DNA of 64,000 bases from an uncultured bacterium (GCA_964607485.1 CAZSKP010000002.1:43907-107906); one strand, 5' to 3'. Positions 23,704 to 52,727 are shown, numbered from the stretch's first letter. Notes: a model not told the origin generated them from the letters alone. Made by a program: numbers and translations.

Positions 23704-23813
23704 AGCCCGCCTCACGGGATCTCAAACCAGTTTAAGAGTTGACCAAAGGAGAGCGACCGCGACAAAACCCGGCTTTAACGAGGGGGTGTGTGCCGAATCC
23801 GCAGGATGAGATT

Positions 23814-35832: not shown

Positions 35833-35836
35833 CCGA

Positions 35837-35914
35837 TCATCGACCTGCCACGCCCATCCCGCCCTCACCGAGTTTTTCGAGGATTTTGTAGTGGAATATG
35901 GTCTTGCCGATCAT
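35837..35914 (-). pseudogene. orphan kinase N-terminus remnant at the distal end of the array
   Basis: MIGKTIFHYKILEKLGEGGMGVAGR*, starting in ATGA overlap with the stop of 35911..38988. Confidence 0.85.
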
Positions 35915-38900
35915 TGTTCCAGGTTCATCTTCTTGAGCAATGATATGTATCTGGCGTCGTTCGAGAGATTGTCAAAAACGGGACTTGTCTTGAGAAATTG
36001 GGAGAGCCCGATGTCGCGTTCCTCATATGCTTCTTCCAGCCATCGAAAACCTTCATCATCTTTTCCAAGCTGAAAGTAGAGATTCGCCAGCATGTGGGCT
36101 GGGACATACTCTTGCATTGATCGCTCCTGAAAAACATCTAAAGCCTTCTGTGCTTCTTCCTTTCTGCCGAGCATCGCGTTGACGGACCCCATTTGTATTT
36201 CCAGTGCCAGATTTGAACGTTTTGACAGTCTTCTTTCTTCTTCGAATTCTGCCATTGCCTTCTCCAACAGGCCCTCCCCCAGATAGGCATATCCGAGCAA
36301 AACGTGGACAAAGCTGAGGCTCGGGTTGAGTTCGATGGTATTGTGAAAAGCTTCAATGGCGCGGTTATATTGTCGTGCGACCAAAAAGGATGTTCCATAG
36401 CATCTATTGATTATATGCGAGAGGGGGTCAATCTCTCTGGCCCGGTTCATCTCTTTGATGCCTTCTTCAAAGCGCGCCAGAGCGGTCAAATAGTGTCCGT
36501 AGAAGTGATGAGCCTCCGCATAGTTTGGATTCAACCTTATGGACTTTTGGAGATCCTTCTCGGCTCCCTCCCAATCCCAATCGTACGCAGCCTTGACCGC
36601 CCCGAGAGACGCATAAGCTTCAGCCAGCTTTTCGTTGATCTCCAGCGCGCGAAGGGCTGCTTGCCTTGCTTTAGGAAAAGCCTCCCTTGGAGGCAAAAAA
36701 CTGTAAGTCCCAAGAACCAAGTAGGAATCTGCAATCCCGACATGTGCGAGCGCATACTGGGGGTTTACTTCTATTGCTTGCTCAAAACATGCGATTGCTT
36801 TATGCAGGTCTTCATCGGTCTGCTTGTTCCAGAAATAGCGTCCCTTTAGATACAAATTGTAGGCCTCTAAATCGACGGTCTGGCGCTGGGCAAGTTTTGC
36901 CTTTTCTTCTCCCAAGAGCTTCGGTTTGAGCCTTTCAACAATCGCCCCTGAGATCTCGTCCTGAATGGCGAATATGTCCTCCATTTCACGGTCATATTTC
37001 TCCGACCAGAGGTGTTCACCTCGAACCGTATTGACGAGCTGAGCCGTTATTCGCAGCCTGTTTCCTGCTTTTTGAATGCTTCCCTCCAATACAGTTCCGA
37101 CACCAAGCTTCCTTCCGATTTCGCGGATATCAAGGTTCTGACCTTTAAACGAAAATGCGGAGGTACGGGCGATGACTTTCAAGTCGCGGAGCTGCGTCAG
37201 TTCATTGATGAGCGATTCGGAGATGCCGTCGCAGAAGTATTCTTGATCGCTCCCAGGACTCATGTCCACGAAGGGAAGAACCGCGATTGAAGGTGCGATC
37301 TTCTCTTCCACAACGATCTGCGGCGTTGCACCTGCCCTGATCGCTTTCAAATCGGAGAGCACTGCTTCCATATTCTCATACCGGACCTGAGGCTGCTTCT
37401 GCATCATCTTCTTGACTGCCTGTGCCAGCGCTTCCGGCACCTCACGTCTAATGCTTGTTATGGGCTTAGGCTCCTCATGCACAATCTTGTAGATAAGTCC
37501 TGCATCGGTCGGTGCAGCGAAGGGTTGCCTGCCGGTGAGCATCTCATAGAGGACCACGCCTAATGACCAAATGTCGGTGCGATGGTCAATTGCGGATTCC
37601 CCGTGAGCTTGCTCAGGAGACATATATGCCACCGTCCCCATGATAGTGGCCGTTTTTGTAAGCCGAGTTTGCCCGGCCAGCTTTGCAAGGCCGAAATCCA
37701 TGATGCGTGCATGGCCTCTTCTCGTCACCATGATGTTGGCGGTCTTGATATCACGATGAATTATTCCTTTCTCATGTGCCTCCTGAAGCCCCTCTGCCAT
37801 TTGGATTGCCAGGTCAACTGCCTCACCTACATCGACCGGACCCAATTCGATGAGTTCAGTCAAGTTGTTTCCATCAATGTATTCCATCGCAATGAACGCT
37901 TGGCCTTCCGTTTCATCAATTTCATGGATAGTGCAGATATTGGGATGAGCCAGCGACGCCGCTGCCTGGGCCTCACGAAGGAATCTTTGTTGCCACTCGT
38001 CGGATCGAGTCAGTTCTGGCGGTAAGAATTTAAGAGCGACTTGTCTTTTGAGCTTCGTATCCTCGGCCTTATACACCACCCCCATCCCGCCCTCGCCGAG
38101 CTTTTCGAGAATCTTGTAATGTGATATGGTCTTACCGATCAAGCTCGGGCTTAACGTCGACACTGGCTTTGAAGCACTCGCCTCGCGCCCTTCAAGAAAC
38201 TGCTTCACACTTTCCAGGTATGAAATATCACCTGCATAAGGACCGGCCATATCACCTTCCAATTCAATGAAGCGCGCATCTTGTATCAGAGTAGCCAGTC
38301 TCCTGCCCGCCGAGACGGGTACGCTGCGGTCATACCGTCTATGCAGGATAAGCGTGGGCGCTTTCACTTGGGGAAGGTACGCTCTTATATTGGTGAAAAT
38401 GAAGGATTCCCAGTACCTTGCAGCAATCTCCGGCAATACCGACTCGCGCAGCTGACGGGCGAACCAGCGCTGTAGCTCTATCGGTCCGCTTGGAAAAGAG
38501 AAATCCGCTATCGCTCGTGGTGCGAGAGACCAGTGCTTTCGACTGAGCTCTGCTATGCCATGAATATGCTCGCTGGAGCCTAGCTCCTCTCCGTGTGAAT
38601 ATGGTGCCCAGAGCACAAGCCGCGAAATTCGTTCCGGGTGCTGGGCTGCAAATGCCATGGAGACTACCGTCCCATCGTGAGCGCCAATCAAATCAAAATG
38701 CTCGATCTGAAGGTCAGCGGCAACGGCACGAAGGTCGGCAACATGGGCTTCCAGCGAAATATCACCAATCCCATGCTGGGACAAACCAACTCCACGACGG
38801 TCCATCTGCACAAAGAGGTGTTCCTGGGCCAAGCTTTGGCCGAAGTTGCGGAGTTGGGGATGTTTCCATTCGTGTTCGAGATTACCGCACCACGTAGGGA

Positions 38901-38988
38901 CAAACAGGAGAGGTGCACCCTCACCCGCAACGGCATACGCTATCTGAGTTCCATCAGCGCTGGTGCAGTAGCGAATCTGTGCTTCCAT
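35911..38988 (-). CDS. alpha/beta-hydrolase-like (degenerate) + Ser/Thr kinase + TolB-like + TPR protein
   Basis: GEGGMG, VALK, HRDIK, DFG, YMSPE; SIAVLPF...QEYFCDG; TPRs. Hydrolase elbow reads GAHDG. Confidence 0.93.
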   Translation of the reverse strand: MEAQIRYCTSADGTQIAYAVAGEGAPLLFVPTWCGNLEHEWKHPQLRNFGQSLAQEHLFVQMDRRGVGLSQHGIGDISLEAHVADLRAVAADLQIEHFDLIGAHDGTVVSMAFAAQHPERISRLVLWAPYSHGEELGSSEHIHGIAELSRKHWSLAPRAIADFSFPSGPIELQRWFARQLRESVLPEIAARYWESFIFTNIRAYLPQVKAPTLILHRRYDRSVPVSAGRRLATLIQDARFIELEGDMAGPYAGDISYLESVKQFLEGREASASKPVSTLSPSLIGKTISHYKILEKLGEGGMGVVYKAEDTKLKRQVALKFLPPELTRSDEWQQRFLREAQAAASLAHPNICTIHEIDETEGQAFIAMEYIDGNNLTELIELGPVDVGEAVDLAIQMAEGLQEAHEKGIIHRDIKTANIMVTRRGHARIMDFGLAKLAGQTRLTKTATIMGTVAYMSPEQAHGESAIDHRTDIWSLGVVLYEMLTGRQPFAAPTDAGLIYKIVHEEPKPITSIRREVPEALAQAVKKMMQKQPQVRYENMEAVLSDLKAIRAGATPQIVVEEKIAPSIAVLPFVDMSPGSDQEYFCDGISESLINELTQLRDLKVIARTSAFSFKGQNLDIREIGRKLGVGTVLEGSIQKAGNRLRITAQLVNTVRGEHLWSEKYDREMEDIFAIQDEISGAIVERLKPKLLGEEKAKLAQRQTVDLEAYNLYLKGRYFWNKQTDEDLHKAIACFEQAIEVNPQYALAHVGIADSYLVLGTYSFLPPREAFPKARQAALRALEINEKLAEAYASLGAVKAAYDWDWEGAEKDLQKSIRLNPNYAEAHHFYGHYLTALARFEEGIKEMNRAREIDPLSHIINRCYGTSFLVARQYNRAIEAFHNTIELNPSLSFVHVLLGYAYLGEGLLEKAMAEFEEERRLSKRSNLALEIQMGSVNAMLGRKEEAQKALDVFQERSMQEYVPAHMLANLYFQLGKDDEGFRWLEEAYEERDIGLSQFLKTSPVFDNLSNDARYISLLKKMNLEQ

Positions 38989-39071
38989 CAGCCTTCTTCT
39001 CGTATCTTATGCACTACGCCCGTCCCGCGCTTTTCGAGGATCTTCTGGTGGGATGTGGTCTGGCCGATCAT
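38988..39071 (-). pseudogene. degenerate kinase N-terminus remnant forming a 27-aa linker ORF
   Basis: MIGQTTSHQKILEKRGTGVVHKIREEG*, with ATGA overlap upstream and TGATG overlap downstream. Confidence 0.8.
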
Positions 39072-42000
39072 GTGTCCAGGTTCATCCTCTCAAGCATCTC
39101 GATGTATCTCGGATCCGAGCGAACGGGATCCATCAATTGGTGCACTTTGAGTTGGCTCATGAATGGGTCGCGCATCTCATACCCCTTTTCAAGCCACTGA
39201 AACCCTTGATCGTTCTCTCCGAGCGAAAAACATAAACACGCCATGTAAAATGGTGGTGTATATTCCTGGCTCGATCGTTCTGTCAGATCGCTCAGCACGT
39301 GCTTTGCTCGATCCTTATCGCCGGTAATCGCATGGAGGCATCCAATAACAGCCTCTGTAGTGAAAGGTGCTCCGACTCTGCCTTTCCTCAGCCTTTTTTC
39401 TTCCTGCAATTCCGCCAGTGCTTCTTCATACATTGATTTTCCCATGTATGCTAATCCGAGCACCCCATGGGTATACGTAAAGGCGGGATCCATCTCGACT
39501 GTTTTCTTCAATGCTTCTATCGCCCTATCATACTTCCTGGCGAACATGAATATCATGCCGAGATTTCTGTGGAATACAATATGGAGGGGATCGAGTTGAA
39601 TCGCCCGTTGCATCTCATCGATGGCCTTGTTGAACCTCGCCGTGGCCATCAGAAAATTCGCATATATACCATGACCAACAGCATTGCCCGGATTCAACTC
39701 CATGGCTCGTTTGAGTCCCTGCTCTGCACCCTGCCAATCCCAATCATTCAAAGCTTTGATCATTGCCAGGGAGACATGAGCCTCGACAAGTGTGTCGTCA
39801 AGCTCCAGCGCTTTCTGTGCTGCCTCTCTTCCTTTCGTGAACATCTCCCGTGACGGTAATGCCAAATAAAGCGGAAGCGAAAAGTAGAGCTCAGCCAGCC
39901 CCGCATACGCTGGCGCGTAGTTCGGAAATTCTTCAATCGTCCGTTCATAGTACTCGATCGCCTTTTTCACGCCTTCATCCGTCCGCTTGCCCCAGAAATA
40001 GCGGGCCTTCAGATACAAATTATAGGCGTCAAGATCCACGGTCCGGCGCTTCCCAAAATGTGCCTTGTCTTTTCCCAGCAGTTTGACCTTGAGCATGTCA
40101 ACAATTGCCAGCGTGATCTCGTCCTGAATGGCGAACACGTCGTCCATCTCTCTGTCTAATCGTTCGGACCACAGGTGATAACCATCAGCCACTTTGACAA
40201 GCTGAGCTGTTATTCGCAGCCTGTTTCCTGCTTTTTGAATGCTTCCCTCTAATACAGTTCCGACACCAAGCTTCCTTCCGATTTCGCGGATGTCAAGGCT
40301 CTGACCTTTAAACGAAAATGCAGAGGTGCGGGCGATGACTTTCAAATCGCGGAGCTGCGTCAGTTCATTGATGAGCGATTCGGAGATGCCATCGCAGAAG
40401 TATTCCTGGTCTTTCGCCGGGCTCATGTCGACGAACGGCAGGACTGCAATCGACGGGCTAGGCTTCTCGCGTGTCTCTATCTTCGGCGCCGCACCCGCCC
40501 TGATCGCTCTCAGGTCTGAAAGCAAAGCCGCCGCATCCTCATATCGTTCCTGAGGATTCTTTTGGAGCATCTTGCGGATCGACTGTTCCAAAGCAGGCGG
40601 AATATCGCTCCGCAATTTCGATACCGGTTCCGGCTCCTCATAGATGATCTTATGAATCACGGCGGCATCGGATGGAGCGTCGAAGGGGGGATTTCCGGTC
40701 AGCATCTTGTAGAGCACCACACCCAGCGACCAGATGTCGGTGCGGTTATCAATTGTAGCTTCACCGCTCGCCTGTTCGGGCGACATGTAAGCCACCGTGC
40801 CCATAATGGTGGCGGTCTTTGTCAATCTTGTTCGTCCGGCTAGTTTGGCAAGACCGAAATCCATAATCTTTACCTGGCCCCTACTCGTTATCATTATGTT
40901 CGCGCTTTTTATGTCGCGGTGGATAATTCCCTTTTCGTGTGCTTCTCTGAGACCCTCGGCAATTTCTATCGCAATATCGATTGCTTCTTGTGTCTCAAGA
41001 ACGCCGGCTCCGACTTTCTCCTCCAGGCTTTGTCCATCGACATAGGGCATGGCGATGAATGTGTGCCCTTCGGCTTCATCAATTTCATAGACAGTACAGA
41101 TGTTCGGATAGTCCAATGCCGCCGCAGCTTGCGCTTCGAGGATGAATCGGGTCTTATCCTCGTCGGTGCCCATCATTTGCGGGGTGAAAAACTTCAGTGC
41201 AATGGTGCGTTTGAGCTTTGTATCCTCGGCCTTATACACCACCCCCATCCCGCCCTCGCCGAGCTTTCCGAGAATCCTGTAATGAGAGATGACTTCTCCA
41301 ACCATGTCCTTTTCGATGAGGCTCTGCGGCCGCGCCGGCATTCTGGCAGATTGCCGGTGCTTCCTTTCGTTCTCAAGAACCTCTTGGATGAATCTGTCGA
41401 TTTCTATTCCCATAGTCAGCAGTTCGGGCTCATGCGGCAGGATGGCGTGATTATTTCCTTCCAGCGGGAGAAAACGGGCGCCGGGTATTGTGGTGGCAAG
41501 CTCTCGGCCCAATTCGAACGGCACGATACCATCGCCCTTACGATGGATGACCAAAGTGGGAACGCTGACTTTGGGGAGGAGATCCCTCACATCGACATTT
41601 ATTTTTTCGGCGAAAAGCGCTGCGGCGGTCTCGGCAGAAGTGGAGGCCCGCTGCATCTCATTGAACTCACGAATCGAATCTCCGTCGGCCTCGGGCATGA
41701 ACAGGCCGGTGAACATCTGCCGAAATGCTGGATTGTCTCTGCCCCATCCATGCCGCATAAGGGTAAGCATGGCCTCGAATTGCGCTCGCCCTTCTGCTGT
41801 GTCCAAATCCAGCCCCGCAGGCTTCAGGCGCGCATATGAGCCATACAGCACAATATGGGTAACCCTTTCGGGATGGCGCACGGCGTAAGTGATTGCCGTG
41901 GGTCCTCCCTGTGAGATACCACTGAGACCGAATCGCTCGATACCCACGGCGTCCACAACAGCCTCAAGGTCGCGCACATGGGCTTCAAGCGAGAAATCGC

Positions 42001-42223
42001 TCACCTTATGGTCCGAGAGCCCCATCCCGCGCCCATCGTAACGGACATTGAGATACTGGGAGGCTGCAACTTCCAAAAGTGGACGCCAATACTGGCTTTT
42101 CCACTCATACTCAAGGTGGGTGAACCAACCCAGCACACGTATGATTGGCGGGCCCTCACCTACAACCGCATAGGCAATGCGCACACCGTCTGAAGTCGTG
42201 CAGAAGCGGATCTGCTGTTCCAT
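39068..42223 (-). CDS. alpha/beta-hydrolase + Ser/Thr kinase + TolB-like + TPR protein
   Basis: GISQGG elbow, HRKGD, GNNH; intact kinase motifs; SIAVLPF; TPRs. Confidence 0.94.
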   Translation of the reverse strand: MEQQIRFCTTSDGVRIAYAVVGEGPPIIRVLGWFTHLEYEWKSQYWRPLLEVAASQYLNVRYDGRGMGLSDHKVSDFSLEAHVRDLEAVVDAVGIERFGLSGISQGGPTAITYAVRHPERVTHIVLYGSYARLKPAGLDLDTAEGRAQFEAMLTLMRHGWGRDNPAFRQMFTGLFMPEADGDSIREFNEMQRASTSAETAAALFAEKINVDVRDLLPKVSVPTLVIHRKGDGIVPFELGRELATTIPGARFLPLEGNNHAILPHEPELLTMGIEIDRFIQEVLENERKHRQSARMPARPQSLIEKDMVGEVISHYRILGKLGEGGMGVVYKAEDTKLKRTIALKFFTPQMMGTDEDKTRFILEAQAAAALDYPNICTVYEIDEAEGHTFIAMPYVDGQSLEEKVGAGVLETQEAIDIAIEIAEGLREAHEKGIIHRDIKSANIMITSRGQVKIMDFGLAKLAGRTRLTKTATIMGTVAYMSPEQASGEATIDNRTDIWSLGVVLYKMLTGNPPFDAPSDAAVIHKIIYEEPEPVSKLRSDIPPALEQSIRKMLQKNPQERYEDAAALLSDLRAIRAGAAPKIETREKPSPSIAVLPFVDMSPAKDQEYFCDGISESLINELTQLRDLKVIARTSAFSFKGQSLDIREIGRKLGVGTVLEGSIQKAGNRLRITAQLVKVADGYHLWSERLDREMDDVFAIQDEITLAIVDMLKVKLLGKDKAHFGKRRTVDLDAYNLYLKARYFWGKRTDEGVKKAIEYYERTIEEFPNYAPAYAGLAELYFSLPLYLALPSREMFTKGREAAQKALELDDTLVEAHVSLAMIKALNDWDWQGAEQGLKRAMELNPGNAVGHGIYANFLMATARFNKAIDEMQRAIQLDPLHIVFHRNLGMIFMFARKYDRAIEALKKTVEMDPAFTYTHGVLGLAYMGKSMYEEALAELQEEKRLRKGRVGAPFTTEAVIGCLHAITGDKDRAKHVLSDLTERSSQEYTPPFYMACLCFSLGENDQGFQWLEKGYEMRDPFMSQLKVHQLMDPVRSDPRYIEMLERMNLDT

Positions 42224-42286
42224 CTATATCCCGCCCTCATTGAGCTTTTCGAGGATTTTGTAGTGGGATATGGTCTAGCCGATCAT
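42224..42286 (-). pseudogene. kinase N-terminus remnant with two amber stops
   Basis: MIG*TISHYKILEKLNEGGI*, directly before and in frame with ATG 42223. Confidence 0.85.
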
Positions 42287-44676
42287 TTGTCCAGGCCCAT
42301 GTTTTGCAGCATCTCATCGCATCTGGGGTCAGAGCGAATGCTGTCGAATGTTCTTTCGATTTTGAGGTAACGGAGGAAGAAGTCGCGCTTTTCATATGCT
42401 TTTTGCAGCCACTCAAAGCCCTTCTCTTTCTCGCCCAGGACGAGGTAGAGCCTTGCCATCCCCGACGGAGGGACATACCCTTTCTCCAAGTGTTTCAGCA
42501 AATCGTCCAGCGCTTCCCGCGCTTTGTCTTCCTGGCCGGCATACGCATAGGCGATCCCGATCCACGTTGCCACGACGGGATTCCAGCCTTTCGACAGGGC
42601 CTCCTCTTTCTTGAAGGCTTCCAAGGCCTCTTCGGGCATCGACTTTCCCAGATAGGTCAGACCGAGGTCGAGATGCGTATAGATGTAGTTCGGGTCCATC
42701 TCGATCGTCTTCTGTATAGCGTCGAGCGCACGGTCATACTCGCCTGCGTAGTAATACACGTGCCCGACCGTCCTGTTGGTCACGAGGGATAGCGGGTCCA
42801 AGTCGCGGGCCGTTTGTATCTCATCTATGGCCTCGTCGAACCGTCCGGTAAGAAGCAGCACGAATGCGTACCAGCGGTGCGCGATCGCATAGCCGGGATT
42901 CAGCTCGATGGCTCGCTTGCATTCCGCTTCGGCGCCTTCCCAGTCCCATTCGTAATTCATTTTTATCCAGGCCAGTGAGGCGTGCGCCTCGGCAAGCGTA
43001 TTGTCGATCTCCAGCGCTTTTTCAACCGCCGCCTTCGCCTTCACATATGCCTCTTTGGGCGAAAACGTGCTGTAAAGCGGGAGATTCATGTAGGCGTCGG
43101 CCATGCCGGCATAGGCCGGAGCATAGTCCGGCGCTTTCTCTATCGCCTGCTCGAAATATCTGATTCCATCCTGCAGCCCTTCCGCCGTCATCTTGTTCCA
43201 GAACCAGCGCCCCTTCAGGTAGAGCTTGTAAGCTTCAATATCCACGGTCGGACGGCCCGCGAATCTGGCCTGCTCTCCTCCCAGGAGCTTGACCTTCAGC
43301 TTGTCCACAATCGTCAGGGTGATCTCGTCCTGAATCGCAAAGATGTCTGCCATGCCGCGGTCGTATCGTGCGGACCAGAGATGGTAACCGTCGGCCACGT
43401 TGACGAGCTGTGCCGTCACCCGCAGTCGATCTCCCACTTTGCGCACGCTGCCTTCCAGCACCGTTTCCACATTCAATTCCCTGCCGATGTCGCGAATGTC
43501 GCGTTTCTCGCCCTTGAACGAAAAGGCCGACGTCCGGGCAACCACGTGCAGGCCCTTGAGCTGGGTTAACGCGTTAATGAGTTCCTCCGCCAATCCGTCA
43601 CAGAAGTACTCCTGGTCTCGTTCCGCGCTCATATCGACGAAGGGCAAGACGGCGATGGAAGGCAAACGGTCCGCTGCCGGCGTACGCGCTCCGGCGGCAG
43701 GCGGGGCGGGCTCGGACTTCGGGAGGAGAAGAACGGCCGCGGCGACCAGGCAGGCCAAAACGATAACGATGGCCGCGGCGACCACAATTCGCCTCGAGAA
43801 TTTCGGTTTTGCGATCCTTATCGTTCCCGTGCTCGGGCGCTTCTTGGTGATGCCGGCTCGTGTCTGCGGGTCCTGGAGAAGGCGAAGATCCTCAAGGAAT
43901 TCACGGACGCTCGCATATCGGTCTTCCTTGTCCTTGGCCATTGCCCGGGCCACAACGGCGTCCAGCTCGGGAGGCAAACCCGGTTTAGCAGGACTCAGAG
44001 TGGCCGGTTCCTCGTTGATGATTTTGTAGATTACCGAAGCGGGATTATTTCCCGTGAAGGGGGTCTCCCCCGTGAGCATCTCGTAAAGCACGACCCCCAG
44101 CGACCAGATGTCGGTGCGCTCGTCCGTGGCTTCGCCGCGTGTCTGCTCCGGAGACATATATTCCACCGTGCCCATGATCGTGGGCACTTTGGTGAGCCTC
44201 GTTCGACCGGCCAATTTGGCCAGTCCGAAATCCATGATCCGGGCCCGGCCCTTTTCGGTTATCATGATATTGGCGCTCTTTATGTCGCGGTGGATGATGC
44301 CCTTCTCATGCGCCTCCTGCAAGCCTTCGGCCACTTGGATGGCAATGTCCAGCGCCTCGTCCTGAGCCAGTGGACCGGACCTCAGTTTTTCCTCCAGATT
44401 CTGCCCGTCGACATAGGCCATCGCAATGAACGTCTGTCCCTCGGCCTCATCGATTTCGTATAGAGTGCAGATGTTGGAATGATCCAGCGCGGCCGCGGAC
44501 TGCGCTTCATAGACAAATCGCATCCTTTCTTCTTCGTTGCCCAGGCTTTGAGGAGAGAGGAATTTTATCGCGACCGTCCTCTTAAGCTTCGTATCCTCGG
44601 CCTTATACACCACGCCCATTCCGCCCTTGCCGAGCTTTTCAAGGATTTTGTAATGGGATATGGTTTTGCCGACCAT
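42283..44676 (-). CDS. membrane-anchored Ser/Thr kinase + TolB-like + TPR protein
   Basis: Start MVGKTISHY; TM IVVAAAIVIVLACLVAAAVLLL; SIAVLPF; TPRs. Confidence 0.93.
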   Translation of the reverse strand: MVGKTISHYKILEKLGKGGMGVVYKAEDTKLKRTVAIKFLSPQSLGNEEERMRFVYEAQSAAALDHSNICTLYEIDEAEGQTFIAMAYVDGQNLEEKLRSGPLAQDEALDIAIQVAEGLQEAHEKGIIHRDIKSANIMITEKGRARIMDFGLAKLAGRTRLTKVPTIMGTVEYMSPEQTRGEATDERTDIWSLGVVLYEMLTGETPFTGNNPASVIYKIINEEPATLSPAKPGLPPELDAVVARAMAKDKEDRYASVREFLEDLRLLQDPQTRAGITKKRPSTGTIRIAKPKFSRRIVVAAAIVIVLACLVAAAVLLLPKSEPAPPAAGARTPAADRLPSIAVLPFVDMSAERDQEYFCDGLAEELINALTQLKGLHVVARTSAFSFKGEKRDIRDIGRELNVETVLEGSVRKVGDRLRVTAQLVNVADGYHLWSARYDRGMADIFAIQDEITLTIVDKLKVKLLGGEQARFAGRPTVDIEAYKLYLKGRWFWNKMTAEGLQDGIRYFEQAIEKAPDYAPAYAGMADAYMNLPLYSTFSPKEAYVKAKAAVEKALEIDNTLAEAHASLAWIKMNYEWDWEGAEAECKRAIELNPGYAIAHRWYAFVLLLTGRFDEAIDEIQTARDLDPLSLVTNRTVGHVYYYAGEYDRALDAIQKTIEMDPNYIYTHLDLGLTYLGKSMPEEALEAFKKEEALSKGWNPVVATWIGIAYAYAGQEDKAREALDDLLKHLEKGYVPPSGMARLYLVLGEKEKGFEWLQKAYEKRDFFLRYLKIERTFDSIRSDPRCDEMLQNMGLDK

Positions 44677-44718
44677 TTGTTCGGGCCTATCTCTATAGGC
44701 AGCGCGGGCCATACTTCA

Positions 44719-45528
44719 TTATGATTTCACGCGCCTCAAGTCGGAGATTACTTCTGCCATGCTTTTGTGCCGGTCTTCGCTGTCCTTCGCCATCATCTTA
44801 CGGACACAGATTTCCAATGTCTCAGGCACATCTTTTCGCAGCCTCCGTATCCTGACGGGCTCATCCTTTGTGATTGACTTTATCATCTCGCCCACGTTGC
44901 GACCCGTGAACGGATGCGTGCCGGTCAGCATCCGATACATCACAACACCCAGCGACCAGATGTCTGTCCCGTAGCTAACAGGCTCGCCGACGGCTTGCTC
45001 GGGCGACATGAAGGGAACCGTGCCCAGAATTGCACGGGGCTTCGTGATGTCCTCCTTTTCGAGGGGTTTCGATAATCCGAAATCCAGAATCTTTACGACT
45101 CCTTCTTCATTGATCATGATGTTGCCGTCTTTGATGTCCCGGTGAATAATCTTCTTCTTGTGCGCCGCGTTCAAACCTCGTGCAGTCTGAAGTCCGATGC
45201 TGAGCGCTTCCTTTATGTCGAGCGGGCCCAGTTTGGTCATCTCACTGAGACTCCGGCCTTCAACATAAGCCATGGCTATGAATGTGTGACCTTCCACGGC
45301 ATCGACTTCATAGACGGTGCAGATGTTGGGATGATCCAGTTGCGCAACGGTCTGCGCCTCGCGCAAGAACCTCAGTCGCGCCTTTGGGTTCTTGAGCAGC
45401 TTCTCCGACATAATCTTGATGGCAACCGTCCTCTCCAGCCTCACGTCTTTCGCCTTGTAGACAGTGCTCCTGCCGCCGTCGCCGAGTTTCTCGATGATTT
45501 TGTAGCGTGATATGGTCTTTCCGATCAT
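44719..45528 (-). CDS. stand-alone Ser/Thr kinase domain
   Basis: 269 aa; GDGGRSTV, VAIK, HRDIKDGN, DFG, FMSPE. Confidence 0.9.
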   Translation of the reverse strand: MIGKTISRYKIIEKLGDGGRSTVYKAKDVRLERTVAIKIMSEKLLKNPKARLRFLREAQTVAQLDHPNICTVYEVDAVEGHTFIAMAYVEGRSLSEMTKLGPLDIKEALSIGLQTARGLNAAHKKKIIHRDIKDGNIMINEEGVVKILDFGLSKPLEKEDITKPRAILGTVPFMSPEQAVGEPVSYGTDIWSLGVVMYRMLTGTHPFTGRNVGEMIKSITKDEPVRIRRLRKDVPETLEICVRKMMAKDSEDRHKSMAEVISDLRRVKS

Positions 45529-47747
45529 TTGTCCAGTCCAATTTTCTTGAGGATTTCAATGTATCTGGGATCATGGCGCAAGTCAAGAATGTCCACGAAG
45601 GGGTGCACTTTGAGATAGCAGAGGTAAACATCGCGTTCCTCATATGCCTTGTCCAGCCACTCAAAACCCCGGTCATTCTCACCAAGGAATAAAGACAAGA
45701 ACCCCAGAAAGAAAGACGGCACATATTTTCGTCTTGATTGTTCCACCAGGCCTTCCAGCGCTTGCTGGAGCCCCTCTCTATTACCCATCATGCCCCATGT
45801 AAGGCCAACCCATGTCTCCACAAGTGGGTCCAGTCCAGTCGCACTCTCTTTCTCTTTTTGGAATTCCGACATTGCTTCTTTATACATCGACTTGATCCAA
45901 TATGCTATCCCGAGCAAGAAGTGTGTAATGCTGTAGTCCGGATACAGTTCGCTGGTTCTCGTCAGCACATCAATTGCCATATCGGGTTCGCGCGCAAACC
46001 AGAACAGAATAGCCGCGTCCCTGTTGACGAAGGGAGAAAGCGGATCCAGTTGGAGAGCCCACTTCATTTCTGCCATCGCTTCCTCTAGTCGGCCCGTGTA
46101 CATCAAATTGAAGGCATAGTCCGAATGGGAGAGTGCATTGCCGGGGTTGAGGTCCAGGGCTTGCCTGAACTCCTTGTCGGCGCCTTCCCAGTCCCAGTCG
46201 TACAGCTGTTTGATCATTCCCAGCGATTCATGTGCTTCGCCGAGAGTGTCATCCAGTTCGAGCGCCTTGAGGGCCGTCTTCCGCGCTTTCGGGAAAACTT
46301 CCTTCGGCGCGAAACCGAAGAATGAAAGCGCTCCCTGTGATATAGCAAGGCTGGCAAAGGCTGCTGCATAGTCCGGCTTCTCTTCTGTTGCCCGCTCGAA
46401 ATATCCGATTGCGGTCTCTAAATCGCTTCTTGTCATCCTATTCATATACCAGCGGCCTTTCAGATACAAGTTATAGGCTTCAAGGCCCACAGTATGGCGT
46501 CTGGCAAGTTTCGCTTTCTCCTCTCCTAGGAGCCTGGGCTTCAATTTATCCACTATCGCCGACGCTATTCCATCTTGGATCGCAAAAATATCATCCATTT
46601 CCCGGTCGTATCGTTCCGACCATAGGTGGCGACCACGGGTAGTTTCGACAAGCTGTGCAGTTATCCTCAACCTGTTGCCTGCTTTCCGCACGCTCCCTTC
46701 TAGCACGTTTTGCACATCCAATTCCCTGCCAATGTCACGAACATTCACGTTCTTACCCTTGAATGAGAAGGCGGATGTCCTGGCAATAACGTGCAAGTCT
46801 TCAAGCTGGGTCAACGCATTGATGAGCTCCTCTGCCAGACCATCACAGAAATATTCCTGCTCCGGGTCCGCGCTCATGTTGACGAAGGGAAGAACAGCAA
46901 TGGAAGGAGAGGATTTGCCTGCCATACTCACCATCCTTGATTTTGCGGTTCGAAGATCAAAAAGCAATGTCCGCATGTCCTCATGCCGCTCCCGAGGATT
47001 TTTTTGTAGCATTTTCCGGATTATGTTTTCCAATCCAGACGAGATGTCGTTCCGCAATTTCGATATCGGCGTCAGTTCTTCATAGATAATCTTATGAATC
47101 AGCGCGGCGTCCGACGGGGCATCGAAGGGTGGATACCCGGTGAGCATTTTGTAGAGCACTACGCCCAATGACCAGATGTCGGTGCGGTGGTCGATGGCCG
47201 TTTCCCCGCTGGCCTGCTCGGGCGACATGTAGGCCACCGTACCCATGATGGTGGATGTCTTGGTTAGCCGTGTGCGTCCCGCAAGCTTCGCGAGACCGAA
47301 GTCCATGATTCTTGCCTGGCCATCTTCGGTCACCATGATGTTCGCCGATTTGATGTCTCTGTGAATAATTCCTTTCTTGTGCGCTTCCGTCAGCCCTTCG
47401 GCAACCTGCATCGCAATATCGAGCGCTTCATGAACTTCAAGAACGCCGGATTCAACTTTCTCTTCCAGGCTCTGGCCATCCACATACGCCATGGCAATAA
47501 ATGTTCCTTCATCCGCTTCATCAATTTCATATACGGTGCAGATGTTCGGGTGGTCGAGTTTGGCGGCAGCCTTCGCCTCAAGGATAAAACGGGCCTTATC
47601 TTCCTCGGAACCTATCGCCTGCGGCGTGAGAAACTTTAGGGCAACCGTCCGCTCCAGCTTCGTATCCTCAGCCTTATACACCACACCCATCCCGCCTTCG
47701 CCGAGCTTTTCGAGGATCTTGTAGTGGGATATGGTTGTGCCGATCAT
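45525..47747 (-). CDS. Ser/Thr kinase + TolB-like + TPR protein (soluble)
   Basis: Intact kinase motifs, SIAVLPF, TPRs, no TM. Confidence 0.94.
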   Translation of the reverse strand: MIGTTISHYKILEKLGEGGMGVVYKAEDTKLERTVALKFLTPQAIGSEEDKARFILEAKAAAKLDHPNICTVYEIDEADEGTFIAMAYVDGQSLEEKVESGVLEVHEALDIAMQVAEGLTEAHKKGIIHRDIKSANIMVTEDGQARIMDFGLAKLAGRTRLTKTSTIMGTVAYMSPEQASGETAIDHRTDIWSLGVVLYKMLTGYPPFDAPSDAALIHKIIYEELTPISKLRNDISSGLENIIRKMLQKNPRERHEDMRTLLFDLRTAKSRMVSMAGKSSPSIAVLPFVNMSADPEQEYFCDGLAEELINALTQLEDLHVIARTSAFSFKGKNVNVRDIGRELDVQNVLEGSVRKAGNRLRITAQLVETTRGRHLWSERYDREMDDIFAIQDGIASAIVDKLKPRLLGEEKAKLARRHTVGLEAYNLYLKGRWYMNRMTRSDLETAIGYFERATEEKPDYAAAFASLAISQGALSFFGFAPKEVFPKARKTALKALELDDTLGEAHESLGMIKQLYDWDWEGADKEFRQALDLNPGNALSHSDYAFNLMYTGRLEEAMAEMKWALQLDPLSPFVNRDAAILFWFAREPDMAIDVLTRTSELYPDYSITHFLLGIAYWIKSMYKEAMSEFQKEKESATGLDPLVETWVGLTWGMMGNREGLQQALEGLVEQSRRKYVPSFFLGFLSLFLGENDRGFEWLDKAYEERDVYLCYLKVHPFVDILDLRHDPRYIEILKKIGLDK

Positions 47748-50080
47748 TTGTCCAGGTTCATCCTCTTCAGCAGTGCCTCATAACGAGGGTCCGAGCGGAA
47801 ATCGTCGTATAGTGTATCTCCTTTGATTAAAGAGAGCCAGATATCGCGTTCATCGGCCGCCTTGTTCAGCCAATGGAAGGCCTGATCCGTTTCCCCCAGC
47901 CTGAGGTATAGCTCCGCTATGACGTTTGCCGGCACATAGACTTCCTCTGATCGCTCCAGCAAATCATTTAACACTTTCCGAGCTTCGTCTTTTCTGCCAA
48001 TGCGTGCATAGAAACTTGCGACAGCGCCCTCATCACGCGGATTCAGGGTGCCTGCGATCTTCCTTTCATACTCCATCTCCGCGACGGCTTCTTCATACAT
48101 AGATTTGCAGTAGTACATCCATCCAAGCCAGTAATGTGTGGCGGGATAGTCTGGGTCCATCTCTATGCCCTTCTTCAAGACCTCTATCCCTTCGTCGAAC
48201 CGAGCGGCATAGAGAAACATTATCCCCATGCCTCTGTTAATGAAAAGCGAGAGAGGATCGAGTTCGACGGCTTTCTGCATTTCCTCGACGGCTGCGTCGA
48301 CCCGCCCCATGCTCAGCAGATAGAAGGCGTGCCAATGGCGAGCCATCGCGCCTCCGGGGTTGAGTTCGAGCGCCCTCTGAAACTCTCTTCCTGCATTCTC
48401 CCAGTCCCAGTCGAAAAACATCCTGATGTTGCCCAGCGAGACATGTGCTTCCGCGAGCGTATCGTCAATCTCGAGAGCCGTCAACGCGGCCTGTTTCGCC
48501 TTGGGATAGACTTCGCTTGTAGGCACATAGCCAAAAATCGGAAGATAATGGTAGCAGTCGGCCAAACCGGCGTAGGCCTGCGCATAGTCCGGGGCTTTCT
48601 CTATTGCCTGTTCGAAGTACTGTATCGCTTTTTCTATATCCTCTTCCGTGCCCTTGTGGAAGAAGAAGCGGCCTTGGAGATACAAATCATAGATTTCATG
48701 ATCTACGACAGGCCGCTTTGCAAGGACCGCCTGTTCTCCGTCGGCAAGCCTGACCCTCAATTTCTTCACTATAGCCCGGGAGATTTCCTCCTGAACGGCA
48801 AAGATATCTTCCACATCTCGATCATATTGCTCCGACCAGAGGTGAAATCCGTCACTCACTTTTACGAGCTGCGTCGTGATGCGCAGCCGATTGCCCGCCT
48901 TTCGGATGCTACCCTCAAGCACAGTATCGACGTTGAGCTTCTTCCCAATATCACTAATCGTTACGTTTCTCCCCTTGAATGAAAAGGCGGACGTCCGAGC
49001 GACGACCTTCAGGTTTGTGAATCTCGCGAGCGCATTGATTAGCTCTTCCGATATTCCATCACAGAAATATTCCTGGTCCTTTTCGGCACTCATGTCAACA
49101 AACGGGAGCACTGCAATCGAGGAGAAAGCTTTTTCTTCCTTTTGTCGTCCGAGGAACGCTATGGCCGCAATGCAAATGCCCATCGCTGCAATTCCCATTG
49201 CTACGGGTCTCACGCCAATCCGTTTCGATTTCCAGGAAGGAGCCAATCTCAGACGTCTCCCATCTCCGCGTTCCTTCTTACCCAGGCCGTCCAGGAACTC
49301 GGAGGTCGTGCGGAATCTACTATCCCTGTCTTTTGCCATTGCGCGGGAGACAACGGCAGTCAATTCAGATGGGACGTCCGGCCTCAGCTCTTCTACAGGG
49401 ATGGGCTCTTCGCTGACAATCTTGTGAATCATCGCCACTTCATTCGGTGCGTCGAAAGGGGGTTTGCCGGTGAGCATCTCATAGAGGACCACGCCGAGAG
49501 AATACACATCTGTCCGGAAATCGAGTTCCTCGCCGCGGCATTGTTCGGGCGACATGTAGCCAAGTGTGCCGATGAGTGTGCCCGACTGCGTCACCTTCGA
49601 GCGGTCATCGGCGGCTCTCGCCAAACCGAAGTCCAGGACCTTTGCATTGCCGGAGCCGTCGATAATCACGTTTGATGGCTTGACGTCGCGGTGGATGATG
49701 TTGTGCTTGTGGGCATGTTCCAGGGCCAGCGCTACCTGAGAAATGATCCGCACCGCCTCGCTCGGCTCGAATTTGCCTTTCTTCTCCAAAACTTTATCAA
49801 GAGTTTCCCCCTCCACGTATTCCATGCTGAAGAAGTGGAGATCGTTGTCCTCCGCGATGTCGAATATCTGGATGATATTGGAATGGCTGAGTTTTGCCAC
49901 CGCGCGGGCTTCTCGCTTGAATCTCTTAAGGAAAGACGCATCCGAACTCAGATGAGGAGGCAGGATTTTCAAGGCAACCGTCCGCTCCAGCTTCGTGTCC
50001 TCGGCTTTATACACCACGCCCATCCCGCCCTCGCCAAGCTTTTCGAGAATCTTGTAATGGGATATAGTTGTGCCGATCAT
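47744..50080 (-). CDS. membrane-anchored Ser/Thr kinase + TolB-like + TPR protein
   Basis: Start MIGTTISHY in ATGA overlap; TM VAMGIAAMGICIAAIAFLG. Confidence 0.93.
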   Translation of the reverse strand: MIGTTISHYKILEKLGEGGMGVVYKAEDTKLERTVALKILPPHLSSDASFLKRFKREARAVAKLSHSNIIQIFDIAEDNDLHFFSMEYVEGETLDKVLEKKGKFEPSEAVRIISQVALALEHAHKHNIIHRDVKPSNVIIDGSGNAKVLDFGLARAADDRSKVTQSGTLIGTLGYMSPEQCRGEELDFRTDVYSLGVVLYEMLTGKPPFDAPNEVAMIHKIVSEEPIPVEELRPDVPSELTAVVSRAMAKDRDSRFRTTSEFLDGLGKKERGDGRRLRLAPSWKSKRIGVRPVAMGIAAMGICIAAIAFLGRQKEEKAFSSIAVLPFVDMSAEKDQEYFCDGISEELINALARFTNLKVVARTSAFSFKGRNVTISDIGKKLNVDTVLEGSIRKAGNRLRITTQLVKVSDGFHLWSEQYDRDVEDIFAVQEEISRAIVKKLRVRLADGEQAVLAKRPVVDHEIYDLYLQGRFFFHKGTEEDIEKAIQYFEQAIEKAPDYAQAYAGLADCYHYLPIFGYVPTSEVYPKAKQAALTALEIDDTLAEAHVSLGNIRMFFDWDWENAGREFQRALELNPGGAMARHWHAFYLLSMGRVDAAVEEMQKAVELDPLSLFINRGMGIMFLYAARFDEGIEVLKKGIEMDPDYPATHYWLGWMYYCKSMYEEAVAEMEYERKIAGTLNPRDEGAVASFYARIGRKDEARKVLNDLLERSEEVYVPANVIAELYLRLGETDQAFHWLNKAADERDIWLSLIKGDTLYDDFRSDPRYEALLKRMNLDK

Positions 50081-52323
50081 GGTTCGAGGCCCATTTTTTT
50101 CAGAATTGCTTTGAACCTGGGGTCCGAACGCAAGGGAGCGACCATTGGAGCTGCCTGAAAATAACCAAGCCAAATGTCACCGCTCTCGCAGGCCTTCTCA
50201 AGCCATTCGAACCCCCTATCGATGTCTCCAAGCGCAAAATAGAGCAATCCAGTAAAGGTCGGAGGCACATATTCCGTTTCACTACGCGTCAAAAACGTGT
50301 TGAGAATATCCAGGGCTTTCTCCCGCTTTCCAACGAGCGCATGCCAGACAGCGATACTCCATTCCGCGGCAGCATCCAATACGCCCGAAACTTCCCTTTC
50401 CCTTTCAAACTCCAAAAGCGCCTCGTCGTTCATTGACTTCTGTAAATATGCCAACCCCAGAGCCAGGTGAGCATAAGGATGATTCGGGTCCAACTCGATA
50501 GTTTTCCGTAATACTTCTATTGCCCTGTCATTTTGACCTGCCCAATATAAGATCATCCCCAGCCCTATATTTATCTGCAGAGAAAGAGAATCCAGCTTGT
50601 GAGCTTCTTCTATTTCAGCAATTGCTTCATCCAACCGATTCACGCGCACCAGATGATAGGCATAGGTCCAGTGAGCTATTGCATAGCCGGGGTTCAGCTC
50701 AATTGCTTGTTTCAGCTCCCTCTCCGCTCCTTTCCAGTCCCAATCATACGCCGATTTGACCGTGCCCAATGATATATGGGCTTCAGCCAAAGTGTTATCA
50801 ATCTCCAGCGCCCTGAGTGCCGCCCTTCTCCCTTTTTGGTATGTTTCCTGTGGCCGGGACGAAGAAAAAAATGGGAGAACAAGGTGGGCGTCGGCCAACC
50901 CGGCATACGCCTGTGCATAGTCCGGGTCTATCGCCAATGCCTGTTCGAAATAATCGACGGCCTTCTTCAACGCTTCCACTGAAGATTTATTAAAGAAATA
51001 GCGCCCCTTGAGGTACAGGTCGTATGTTTCAATTGGCACTGCTTGCCGGGCGCCGAGCTTTGACTTTTCTGATTTGAGCAGAGTGGGCTTGAGCTTGGTC
51101 ACGATCGCTTCGGAGATTTCGTCCTGTATCGCGAAGATATCGTCCATGTTCCGGTCATACTTCTCGGACCACAGGTGATATCCGTCGGCAACATTAACGA
51201 GCTGGCCGGTTATTCGAAGACGGTTCCCGGCCTTTTGGATGCTTCCTTCCAACACCGTCGCCACATTCAGCCTCTTTCCGATGTCGCGGACATCCAGACT
51301 CTGTCCTTTGAATGAGAAGGCGGATGTTCTGGCAACAACTTTCAGGTCTTTGATCTGCGTCAATGCGTTTATCAGTGCCTCGGCCATGCCGTCGCAGAGA
51401 TATTCCTGATCTCTGGAGGAGCTCATGTCGACAAAAGGCAGCACAACAATCGAAGGCGAAGATTCTTCCTCGATGTGTTTTTCTGAGGAAGATGAGACAG
51501 GGAGTTTCCTGAGGCTTTCCATAAATTCGGTCATGTTCCCGTGCCTTGCCATCCTATCTTTCGCCATTGCCCGAGATACGACAGTGTTGAGCTCTTCTGA
51601 GATGTCCGCTGTGAACTCTCTGACACCGGGAGGTTCCTCGCTGACAATCTTGTGAATCATGGCCACTTCGTTCGGCGCGTCGAATGGGGGTTTGCCTGTC
51701 AGCATTTCGTAGAGCACCACGCCGAGGGAATAGATATCCGTGCGGAAATCGAGTTCCTCGCCGCGGCATTGTTCGGGTGACATGTAGCCAAGTGTACCGA
51801 TGAGCGTGCCCGATTGCGTCACCTTGGAGCGGTCATCGGCGGCTCTGGCCAGACCGAAGTCCATGACCTTTGCATTGCCGGAGCCGTCGATAATTATGTT
51901 TGATGGCTTGACGTCGCGGTGGATTATGTTGTGCTTGTGGGCGTGTTCCAGGGCCAGCGCGACCTGAGAAATGACCCGTACCGCCTCTTTCGGCTCGAAT
52001 TTGCCTTTCTTCTCCAAAACTTTATCAAGAGTTTCCCCCTCCACGTATTCCATGCTGAAGAAGTGGAGATCGTTGTCCTCCGCGATGTCGAATATCTGGA
52101 TGATATTGGAATGGCTGAGTTTTGCCACCGCGCGGGCTTCTCGCTTGAATCTCTTAAGGAAAGAAACATTCGAACTCAGATGAGGAGGCAGGATTTTCAG
52201 AGCGACGGGACGGTCGAGGTTCACCTGGCGGGCCTTATATACCACACCCATCCCACCCTGACCGAGAAGGGACTCGATCTCGTAGTTGCCGAGCCTTGTG
52301 CCTGCGAGCCGTTCGATATCCAT
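50077..52323 (-). CDS. Ser/Thr kinase + TolB-like + TPR protein (first gene of the array)
   Basis: GQGGMG, HRDVK, DFG, SIVVLPF, TPRs. Has its own RBS (AGAGGTAGG). Confidence 0.94.
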   Translation of the reverse strand: MDIERLAGTRLGNYEIESLLGQGGMGVVYKARQVNLDRPVALKILPPHLSSNVSFLKRFKREARAVAKLSHSNIIQIFDIAEDNDLHFFSMEYVEGETLDKVLEKKGKFEPKEAVRVISQVALALEHAHKHNIIHRDVKPSNIIIDGSGNAKVMDFGLARAADDRSKVTQSGTLIGTLGYMSPEQCRGEELDFRTDIYSLGVVLYEMLTGKPPFDAPNEVAMIHKIVSEEPPGVREFTADISEELNTVVSRAMAKDRMARHGNMTEFMESLRKLPVSSSSEKHIEEESSPSIVVLPFVDMSSSRDQEYLCDGMAEALINALTQIKDLKVVARTSAFSFKGQSLDVRDIGKRLNVATVLEGSIQKAGNRLRITGQLVNVADGYHLWSEKYDRNMDDIFAIQDEISEAIVTKLKPTLLKSEKSKLGARQAVPIETYDLYLKGRYFFNKSSVEALKKAVDYFEQALAIDPDYAQAYAGLADAHLVLPFFSSSRPQETYQKGRRAALRALEIDNTLAEAHISLGTVKSAYDWDWKGAERELKQAIELNPGYAIAHWTYAYHLVRVNRLDEAIAEIEEAHKLDSLSLQINIGLGMILYWAGQNDRAIEVLRKTIELDPNHPYAHLALGLAYLQKSMNDEALLEFEREREVSGVLDAAAEWSIAVWHALVGKREKALDILNTFLTRSETEYVPPTFTGLLYFALGDIDRGFEWLEKACESGDIWLGYFQAAPMVAPLRSDPRFKAILKKMGLEP

Positions 52324-52400: not shown

Positions 52401-52686
52401 AAAAAAGCTGGGATTTTGCCAATGACGCTCGCAAATTTGAGCGGTCAAGTGCTGTCCTGGAAAATCCCAATATTCTTGACTTCTCGGAGGCGGCGAATTC
52501 GCCTTTGGGGAAGCAGAAATCAGTGCAGAATTGAAAAGGGATCATTCACCCCTGAGAGAACGGCCCTCAAACGATCCGATGCGCATACCGACGTGAGACG
52601 ATAAGAATCGAAGTCCCCCTTGTGCACAGGCCCGCAAGGTGGGACTGGCACACATTCACGGGGACAGCGGCCGGCATGACAAATTA

Positions 52687-52718
52687 GGGAACCGACGCAA
52701 GTCATGACGTCGGTTCCC
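52687..52718 (-). terminator. hairpin terminator after msrAB
   Basis: GGGAACCGACG / CGTCGGTTCCC 11-bp stem followed by TAATTT on the minus strand. Confidence 0.6.
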
Positions 52719-52727
52719 CTCGTTACT

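Follow-up and report, generated by a model that had tools for sequence, protein, structure and literature searches.

The window analysed here, a 64,000-nucleotide (nt) stretch from an uncultured sediment bacterium (GCA_964607485.1, CAZSKP010000002.1:43907-107906), carries between positions 35837 and 52323 an array of seven genes for Hanks-type Ser/Thr kinases, six of which include a putative sensor module. The host genome belongs to a family that includes 'Candidatus Abyssobacteria'. We consider it likely that the array is an old set of tandem paralogues, probably forming one translationally coupled operon, which evolves by unequal crossing-over and gene conversion. The anatomy and domain content of the array, the mosaicism and age of its genes, the purifying selection acting on them and the distribution of their family across phyla are shown here. 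Three short copies of the kinase 5′ end, referred to as stubs, lie within the array or at its end and provide a more useful lead than the array itself.

As an earlier note on this DNA had proposed, the seven kinase genes (G1 to G7) are co-oriented: they appear as seven long open reading frames (ORFs) arranged head to tail on the minus strand, the genes themselves occupying 35911-52323 (Table 1). Each of the seven proteins matches Pkinase (Pfam PF00069) with E values of 1e-53 to 1e-59 and scores of 180-201 bits against a gathering cut-off of 31.7, which places all of them among the Hanks-type Ser/Thr kinases. In the alignment, inspected by eye, A(L/I)K, HRDxK, DFG and SPE are kept in all seven kinases and the Gly loop of G4 is the variant GDGGRS. 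Pfam TPR families are found in six of the seven proteins and Abhydrolase_1 in G6 and G7. Between the kinase and the TPRs lies a conserved block of ~140 residues, weakly called FlgO by Pfam (23.2 bits in G5 against a cut-off of 22.6, and under the cut-off in G6 and G7). Mean pairwise amino-acid identity is 0.53 for the kinase, 0.70 for the TolB_N-like part and 0.46 for the TPRs, in agreement with the note's description of conserved kinase and TolB-like parts and variable TPRs. Its statement that only the promoter-proximal gene has a different N-terminus does not hold, since G6 and G7 also have N-termini of their own, in the form of alpha/beta-hydrolase domains, and G5 is not ATGA-coupled, the TAA of G4 being followed by a 6-nt gap. 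G1 itself has its own N-terminus (MDIERLAG...) and a Shine-Dalgarno-like sequence, GAGGTAGG. The sensor module is confined to the array in its own genome, where tblastn gives six strong matches, all on contig C2. Outside the array, a truncated kinase gene with the same N-terminal motif is present on contig C79 of this same genome, G000 (~280-518, minus strand); it remains open for ~96 codons and then meets a stop.

The genes are joined in a characteristic way. Six of them (G1, G2, G3, G5, G6 and G7) do end in L(D/E)x-TGA inside the sequence ATGATCGG, as the note had observed, and the stop overlaps an ATG to form ATGA (at 50080, 47747, 45528, 42286, 39071 and 35914); in addition, there is a TGATG overlap at 38988 and a TAG directly followed by ATG at 42223. 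Stops and starts that overlap or abut are those of a translationally coupled operon, and the ATGA overlap would couple the translation of successive genes. Nine copies of the longer motif that starts here had been listed, and all nine are present, at the six ATGA positions and at 44676, 41305 and 38142; three of them (42286, 39071 and 35914), however, do not start a gene and are the stubs. Taken by itself, the 8-mer ATGATCGG is within chance (seven matches against 4.2 expected, with 15 of 100 shuffles reaching seven); the signal resides in the longer motif. The nine copies show 62-92% mutual identity over 60 nt and the 45 nt 5′ of the motif ATG just 58-73%, so that conservation is asymmetric. 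A repeat finder returned a 111-nt junction repeat in seven copies and a 35-nt Gly-loop repeat in nine, which correspond to eight of the nine motif copies (all except that at 42286) and to the Gly loop of G1 (52232-52266). The junction is the conserved N-terminus of the kinase (first beta-strand and Gly-rich loop) together with the ATGA overlap, inherited with the gene family.

The note's proposal further implies that DNA identity at the junction exceeds what protein constraint would demand, and this proved correct. Where two paralogues share a residue, they also share its codon in 0.556 of cases over the first 36 codons, compared to 0.40-0.44 outside the motif and ~0.35 predicted from codon usage alone. 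None of 116 other 36-codon windows reaches this value (mean 0.412, maximum 0.524) and the excess is therefore real, if modest. Next in rank come the final ~40 codons of the genes, which make up the opposite side of the junction.

The paralogues are mosaics, as gene conversion between neighbours would give, and the junction is not the strongest tract in the array: those shared by G1 and G2 and by G6 and G7 are stronger. G1 and G2 are 100% identical in nucleotide sequence over codons ~50-100 and more than 90% identical from about codon 40 to about codon 190, with background identity in the first 30 codons and everywhere past codon ~220. The first ~30 codons of G2 are in turn 92% nucleotide-identical to those of G3, with background identity beyond, and over the remainder of its kinase domain identity to G1 rises to as much as 100%, which makes G2 chimeric. 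G6 and G7 are about 55-70% identical outside their shared 264-nt tract. Unequal crossing-over combined with gene conversion between paralogues would generate such mosaic tracts and raise synonymous identity at the junction. The G2 chimera and the three stubs, one of them at the array end, confirm the proposal in the note that boundaries of duplication or rearrangement fall inside the kinase 5′ end.

Table 1. Coordinates of the array genes, stubs, shared tracts and related features (window positions unless a locus is named).
Feature	Position	Strand	Description
G1	52323..50077	minus	748 amino acids (aa); kinase / CadC-like (TolB_N-like) / TPR; promoter-proximal
G2	50080..47744	minus	778 aa from the ATGATCGG start; architecture of G1 plus one hydrophobic segment between kinase and sensor
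G3	47747..45525	minus	740 aa; kinase / CadC-like / TPR; ATGA-coupled to G2
G4	45528..44719	minus	269 aa; kinase only; ATGA-coupled to G3; stop is TAA
G5	44712..42283	minus	809 aa; predicted membrane-spanning kinase / CadC-like / TPR; motif Met at 44676
G6	42223..39068	minus	1051 aa; alpha/beta-hydrolase / kinase / CadC-like / TPR; internal kinase motif at 41305
G7	38988..35911	minus	1025 aa; hydrolase-like / kinase / CadC-like / TPR; internal kinase motif at 38142 (TTG codon)
Stub 1	42224..42286	minus	63 nt; ATG overlaps G5 TGA; nhmmer E 4.6e-12
Stub 2	38988..39071	minus	degenerate 27-codon ORF; nhmmer E 8.9e-5
Terminal stub	35837..35914	minus	well-kept 25-codon ORF, MIGKTIFHYKILEKLGEGGMGVAGR; ATG overlaps G7 TGA; nhmmer E 4.3e-18
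175-nt exact repeat	51990..52164 (G1) and 49762..49936 (G2)	minus	core of the putative G1/G2 gene-conversion tract
264-nt G7/G6 tract	37030..37293 and 40193-40456	minus	91% identity; TolB_N-like part; repeat family D3
Terminator-like hairpin	52686..52719	minus	13-bp stem; directly after msrAB, upstream of G1
Leader loci	L103-L118; L044:2518-2674, 7717-7874; L047:86-195; L049:2423-2559; L095:6968-7120		

The array is also old. Of 35 sensor modules placed in a tree, the 20 that belong to its own family all fall into one clade (Shimodaira-Hasegawa-like approximate likelihood ratio test, SH-aLRT, 99), in which G1 and G5 each pair with a gene of genome G006, with 82% identity over the sensor part, and G3 pairs with two genes of genome G001; the duplications therefore predate the split of the genera. 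Between orthologues, the ratio of nonsynonymous to synonymous rates (dN/dS, or omega) amounts to 0.05-0.20 in each of the kinase, TolB_N-like and TPR parts and is higher only in short linkers, values which are rough because dS is near saturation. These pairs give no sign of diversifying selection on the TPRs, and the note's picture of diversified TPR sensors finds no support.

Related genomes differ in the content of the array, as the note's proposal implies. In G006 a G1-like gene is followed, by ATGA, by a G3-like gene and then by a third kinase start at the contig end; a second contig of this genome (C76) starts inside a G3-like sensor gene and runs by ATGA into a G4-like kinase-only gene. 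The orthologues of G5 in four other genera (genomes G006, G003, G007 and G009) are solitary genes that have no neighbours in common. Of the 10 genomes of the family that were searched, only G000 and G001 yielded the hydrolase-kinase fusion, with two such genes in the former and one in the latter. The ORFs flanking the array share no neighbours with the relatives' loci save for one weak match, at 37% identity (L014). It concerns an ORF of 424 aa at 22441-23715 (minus strand), 12 kb beyond the array end and without a Pfam match, whose homologue (L014:2690-3856) lies directly beside the G4-like gene of G006.

The putative sensor module was modelled with AlphaFold for G3 (residues ~277-740, 32 aligned sequences), giving a mean predicted local distance difference test (pLDDT) score of 90.2. 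Generic TPR proteins apart, the best whole-module fold match is the periplasmic domain of CadC (3LY7/3LY8; Foldseek E 1e-8 to 1e-7), with a target-normalised template modelling (TM) score of 0.67, a root mean square deviation of 4.5-4.8 over about 306-320 columns and 13-14% identity. The predicted model has the CadC-type fold, an alpha/beta subdomain packed on a helical domain. By sequence the proteins fall outside the related NCBIfam families: the CadC equivalog aligns partially at 29-34 bits against a cut-off of 400, HilA/EilA partially at 53-76 bits against 589, and the 'peptide modification system cyclase' gives partial matches far under its cut-off. A Kyte-Doolittle 19-residue scan (KD19) detects a hydrophobic segment only in G2 (~293-311; 2.35 at residue 293) and G5 (~309-327; 3.23), for which the module is predicted to lie outside the cell. 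It is presumably cytoplasmic in G1, G3, G6 and G7, since no membrane segment is seen in these. The CadC-like/TPR modules are inferred to function as sensors, in which case each protein would bind a different ligand or partner and then phosphorylate its targets.

The hydrolase domain of G6 retains the GxSxG nucleophile motif as GISQG (by eye), and its residues 5-281 align with residues 10-284 of LipJ (NCBIfam NF058673), a partial match of 81 bits against a cut-off of 800. In the corresponding domain of G7 (38988-38100, compared with 42223-41330 in G6) inspection by eye finds GAHDG in place of GISQG and no His near the domain end. The G7 domain is probably catalytically dead, because both the nucleophile Ser and the His appear to be lost.

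The three stubs in the window comprise 63-85 nt of kinase 5′ end; two precede the hydrolase-kinase fusion genes and the other closes the array. Stub 1 reads MIG-TAG, and thus has a stop at codon 4, and continues as a degenerate motif whose frame ends in a TAG directly before the ATG of G6. Its Gly-loop codons, GAGGGCGGG, lie 6 nt 5′ of this ATG, at the position of a ribosome-binding site. Stub 2 overlaps both of its neighbours, its ATG with the TGA of G6 (ATGA) and its TGA with the ATG of G7 (TGATG). Its counterpart in G001 (L076) is an intact 33-codon ORF, also in front of a hydrolase-kinase gene and with both the ATGA and the TGATG overlap. The terminal stub is 90% identical to stub 1 over 60 nt and ends 5 nt from the stop of a convergent hydantoinase-B gene.

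The three stubs break off either at the G-rich Gly-loop codons (GGC GAG GGC GGG ATG) or shortly past them. These codons resemble a Shine-Dalgarno sequence with its start codon, and we infer that the breaks cluster at the Gly loop through microhomology with real ribosome-binding sites. The two internal stubs would date from the addition of a hydrolase-kinase gene behind a junction that was already there, and would now bridge the stop of the preceding gene and the new start: stub 2, a mini-ORF overlapping both neighbours, by passing ribosomes to G7, and stub 1 by supplying a Shine-Dalgarno-like sequence to G6. The terminal stub marks the array end. That re-initiation takes place through the stubs is suggested by their overlap with the neighbouring ORFs. 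A stop/start overlap could in this way survive the gain of an N-terminal domain, since the former start persists as a mini-ORF that serves as a relay.

The family extends well beyond the host lineage. A scan of one genome per species identified 365 stretches encoding relatives, of which the best 77 loci were analysed; these are 40-67% identical over the full length and come from Zixibacteria, Aminicenantes, Gemmatimonadota, Ignavibacteria, Calditrichia, Latescibacteria, KSB1, Eisenbacteria and others. Many of the 77 include co-oriented arrays, of up to six genes (L073, Ignavibacteriaceae). The window and these loci together contain 95 complete sensor-gene ends, 89 of them evaluable. Of these, 21 run by ATGA into a full kinase gene and four do so at another short gap; eight run by ATGA into a stub (three in the window, the others at L034, L040, L043, L066 and L076) and two at a short gap; the remaining 54 have no motif within 40 nt. 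The kinase/CadC-like/TPR architecture, the arrays, the ATGA junction and the stubs are family traits over many phyla and not a local device.

Stubs in the other loci, located with a 66-nt profile of kinase starts, are found at array ends, before the hydrolase-kinase gene of G001 and ~90-150 nt before complete kinase genes (two in L044, others in L047, L049, L069, L082, L095, L100 and L048, and at five of the six genes of L073). In 14 of the 18 stub ORFs examined, among them stub 2 and the corresponding ORF of G001, the end lies -4 to +8 nt from the next ATG; L073@7514, L095@6968, L095@12078 and stub 1 of the window do not follow this pattern. Metagenome contigs scanned with the Shine-Dalgarno/ATG pattern of the leader alone provided a further 16 loci, ~14 of them distinct (L103/L112 and L117/L118 look identical). 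Every one of them has a stub 101-164 nt before the kinase ATG, and 12 of the 13 stubs parsed by script end in the TGA of the main ATGA. In general, the leader in other phyla consists of a copy of the kinase N-terminus of ~20 codons, a structured spacer (of two types), GGGAGGUG and the ATG. For nine sequences with the longer type of spacer, RNAalifold predicts a hairpin of 29 pairs, 10 of which carry compensatory double changes; in a second hairpin, which is invariant, half of the Shine-Dalgarno sequence is paired. No Rfam family matches the leader, the two hits obtained having E values of 0.15 and 0.76. The stub peptide itself appears constrained: between a stub and its own main gene the proportions of synonymous (pS) and nonsynonymous (pN) differences are 0.77 and 0.11, a ratio of 0.146 (18 pairs), similar to those between main genes (0.162) and between stubs (0.159); the synonymous sites are thus close to saturation and the replacement sites are not. 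The case of the leader is strong for conservation and suggestive for function, because the loci are related and gene conversion could mimic selection. A limited literature search found no description of the stubs, the leader or arrays of this architecture.

Two further arrangements were noted among these loci. In three from Aminicenantes (L037:74, L083:6043 and L096:82) a kinase 5′ stub is followed by a conserved segment of several hundred nt, common to the three, and then by the kinase gene; the translated tail of the segment reads ...GIDIFI.AY.NVY.EV.IDAH.HCD.... At L066:12235 the first ~60 kinase residues of an ORF run straight into TPR sequence, which looks like an internal deletion of most of the kinase and of the alpha/beta sensor subdomain.

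Upstream of G1, the terminator-like hairpin sets the array apart from msrAB. Co-transcription of the array from one promoter is plausible because of this hairpin and of the ATGA overlaps. Of the 17 flanking ORFs between 22441 and 62242 that were scanned, 13 match metabolic, redox, transport or regulatory Pfam families; none of the 17 matches a recombinase, integrase or reverse-transcriptase family in Pfam, four matching no family at all. The repeat finder detected no attC-like inverted repeats, only two weak inverted pairs, both inside genes. One of the flanking ORFs (30309-31235, plus strand; 308 aa) joins an N-terminal MerR domain with a TetR_N domain, an unusual pairing.

The source genome is a metagenome-derived 4.7-Mb draft of 93 contigs, and the order of the array was compared with independent contig-level assemblies of four runs of one study. 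Run X1, possibly from the source sample, yields single pieces (35000-37075, 38283-40238, 41517-44075, 44047-49494 and 49907-51772) that bridge every junction and all three stubs with no differences and at an even depth of ~9-10, a check which is not fully independent as the same run may be the genome source; its contig gaps fall only in repeated kinase parts. Runs X2-X4 gave only short pieces at depths of 2-5. Seven joints of the kind expected from circles or deletions were seen; their sides measure 20-26 nt, each is present in a single contig per run, and we regard them as repeat or other-organism noise.

Several observations weigh against the explanation we favour, that of a tandem array growing by exchange between paralogues with stubs as its by-product. 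The stub peptide is under purifying selection in other phyla, so that the term 'relic' may understate its role, and stub 1, with its stop at codon 4, is unable to relay ribosomes as an ORF. Stub breakpoints bunch at 45-85 nt in many unrelated genomes, which random deletion does not predict; this clustering points to a hotspot or to selection and is only loosely covered. Nor does the explanation account for the four sensor proteins without a membrane segment. Finally, a sigma-70 scan found no promoter-like site between msrAB and G1, although with 14 sites against 12.5 expected the scan is uninformative for the present lineage. A different account, which we judge rather unlikely as it stands, is that stubs are selected regulatory leader mini-ORFs in which the translated copy of the kinase N-terminus sets the flow of ribosomes to the next gene, the window showing an operon-internal form and the duplication unit being 'gene plus stub'. 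The regular position of the stub in all 16 metagenome loci (~14 distinct), its end in the main ATGA in 12 of 13, a pN/pS ratio like that of the main genes, the compensatory pairs of the spacer hairpin, the second hairpin over half of the Shine-Dalgarno sequence, the absence of a matching Rfam family, the stubs at five of six genes in L073 and the intact G001 stub with both overlaps kept are all in its favour. Yet the hairpin spacer is absent from the window, where the peptides of stubs 1 and 2 are degenerate (the early stop in one, many replacements and deletions in the other), and terminal stubs have no downstream gene to regulate; moreover, occasional conversion of stubs by the starts of paralogous kinase genes could look like purifying selection, and the loci, being relatives, are not independent. 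A wider joint claim seems possible, if still doubtful: that the stub is a functional, undescribed device over several phyla, a mini-ORF of the kinase's first ~20 residues coupled by its end to the real start; that in many lineages a covarying hairpin hides the ribosome-binding site; that 'gene plus stub' units duplicate and move, breaking at the G-rich Gly-loop codons; and that in the window stub 2 acts as a ribosome relay, stub 1 donates a Shine-Dalgarno sequence and the terminal stub is where the last unit ends.

The note itself had suggested an expandable cassette repertoire for surveillance or immune-like signalling. A mobile or expandable system of units bounded in the kinase 5′ end and encoding fast-changing receptors would fit the boundaries marked by the stubs, the terminal stub and the G2 chimera, the peak of synonymous identity at the junction, the variation in content between genera (G006 appears with G1-like, two G3-like and G4-like genes and a G5 orthologue elsewhere), the restriction of hydrolase fusions to G000 and G001 among the 10 family genomes searched, and the match of the PADLOC models PD-T4-6 and mad6 to the kinase domains. 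We nevertheless regard it as improbable and the note's suggestion as unsupported, because the paralogues are old, with orthologues stable across genera, purifying selection acts on all domains, none of the 17 flanking ORFs scanned against Pfam matches a recombinase, integrase or reverse transcriptase, inverted repeats are limited to the two weak pairs and none is attC-like, and the family is widely spread; the clean junctions are accounted for by homologous recombination alone. Membership of the defence systems PD-T4-6 or mad6 was considered and rejected: the PADLOC scores reach 359 bits, and only the generic kinase domain (residues ~1-300) is aligned. In NCBIfam, MAD6 reaches 172-177 bits (cut-off 460) and PglW 72-93 (cut-off 990), and no partner genes of PD-T4-6, MADS or BREX PglW are found in the flanks. 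Three other candidates were likewise set aside: a diversity-generating retroelement (none of the scanned flanking ORFs matches a reverse transcriptase, and it is the 5′ end that carries the repeats, not the 3′), invertible segments (the genes all point the same way, and the two weak pairs are the only inverted repeats) and translational bypass between two Gly-loop copies, which is unneeded since the same protein would result. Least probable of all, to the point of being hardly credible, is an assembly artefact in which dispersed paralogues were collapsed or chained through the conserved motif. The metagenomic origin and fragmentation of the draft, the exact 175-nt G1/G2 repeat and the breaks of independent contigs in repeated kinase parts would allow it. 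The bridging of every junction by single X1 contigs speaks against it, as does G006, which also has a G1-like gene followed by a G3-like gene with the same ATGA junction, and the only other route through the G1/G2 repeat would produce a deletion together with a circle rather than another order.

Among known systems, integron cassette arrays and the orphan-module arrays of polymorphic toxins consist of co-oriented units bounded by a short conserved sequence usable for recombination. The units in the window are likewise co-oriented and each is bounded by a short conserved piece; they differ in being complete conserved genes under purifying selection, with no integrase match among the scanned flanking ORFs and no attC-like inverted repeats. 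With PD-T4-6 and mad6 of MADS the array shares a strong kinase-domain match (PADLOC), but its sensor part has no counterpart there and partner genes are absent. The periplasmic domain of CadC and the C-terminal part of HilA/EilA-type regulators resemble the sensor module of the array in that an alpha/beta subdomain leads into a helical bundle or TPR-like part. The output of these regulators is a winged-helix DNA binder in place of a Ser/Thr kinase, and the helical part is longer in the array proteins (about 320 residues of TPR). LipJ, like G6, has an alpha/beta-hydrolase domain N-terminal to a signalling enzyme; in LipJ this is an adenylate cyclase, whereas in G6 and G7 it is the kinase with its putative sensor, and G7 seems to be without the nucleophile.

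For the stubs, the closest parallel is with bacterial leaders in which an upstream ORF (uORF) acts through translational coupling and the unmasking of a sequestered ribosome-binding site, as outlined in portions of PMC8092293 and PMC13285730. Like the uORFs outlined there, the stub is a short ORF that ends at or over the start of the main ORF and, in relatives of the array family from other phyla, a predicted hairpin covers part of the Shine-Dalgarno sequence. Compared with those portions, the stub is distinct in that it copies the first ~20 codons of the regulated gene's own family and, in the window, sits between two long genes and overlaps both, an arrangement for which the limited literature search found no description. 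If functional, the stub would provide a testable handle on the translational regulation of abundant and uncharacterised sensor kinases.

The array as a whole represents a further lineage-specific expansion of Ser/Thr kinases in bacteria, in this case in a candidate lineage that has received very little study. Expansions of kinases with TPR or WD40 repeats by duplication and recombination, some of the duplicates being adjacent, are described in part of PMC11032199, which cites Perez et al. 2008, for Myxobacteria and for Planctomycetota such as 'Ca. Uabimicrobium amorphum'. The array has in common with the cases described there the fusion of a kinase to repeat sensors, the lineage-specific clades and the adjacent duplicates. 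It differs from them, as they appear in that part, in the CadC-like alpha/beta subdomain that precedes the repeats, in the four of six sensor proteins that are without a membrane segment, and in the chaining of its genes by ATGA, with kinase 5′ stubs marking the unit boundaries. To such expansions it adds an illustration of how a family may grow, by unequal crossing-over, gene conversion and the grafting of domains behind an existing coupled start.

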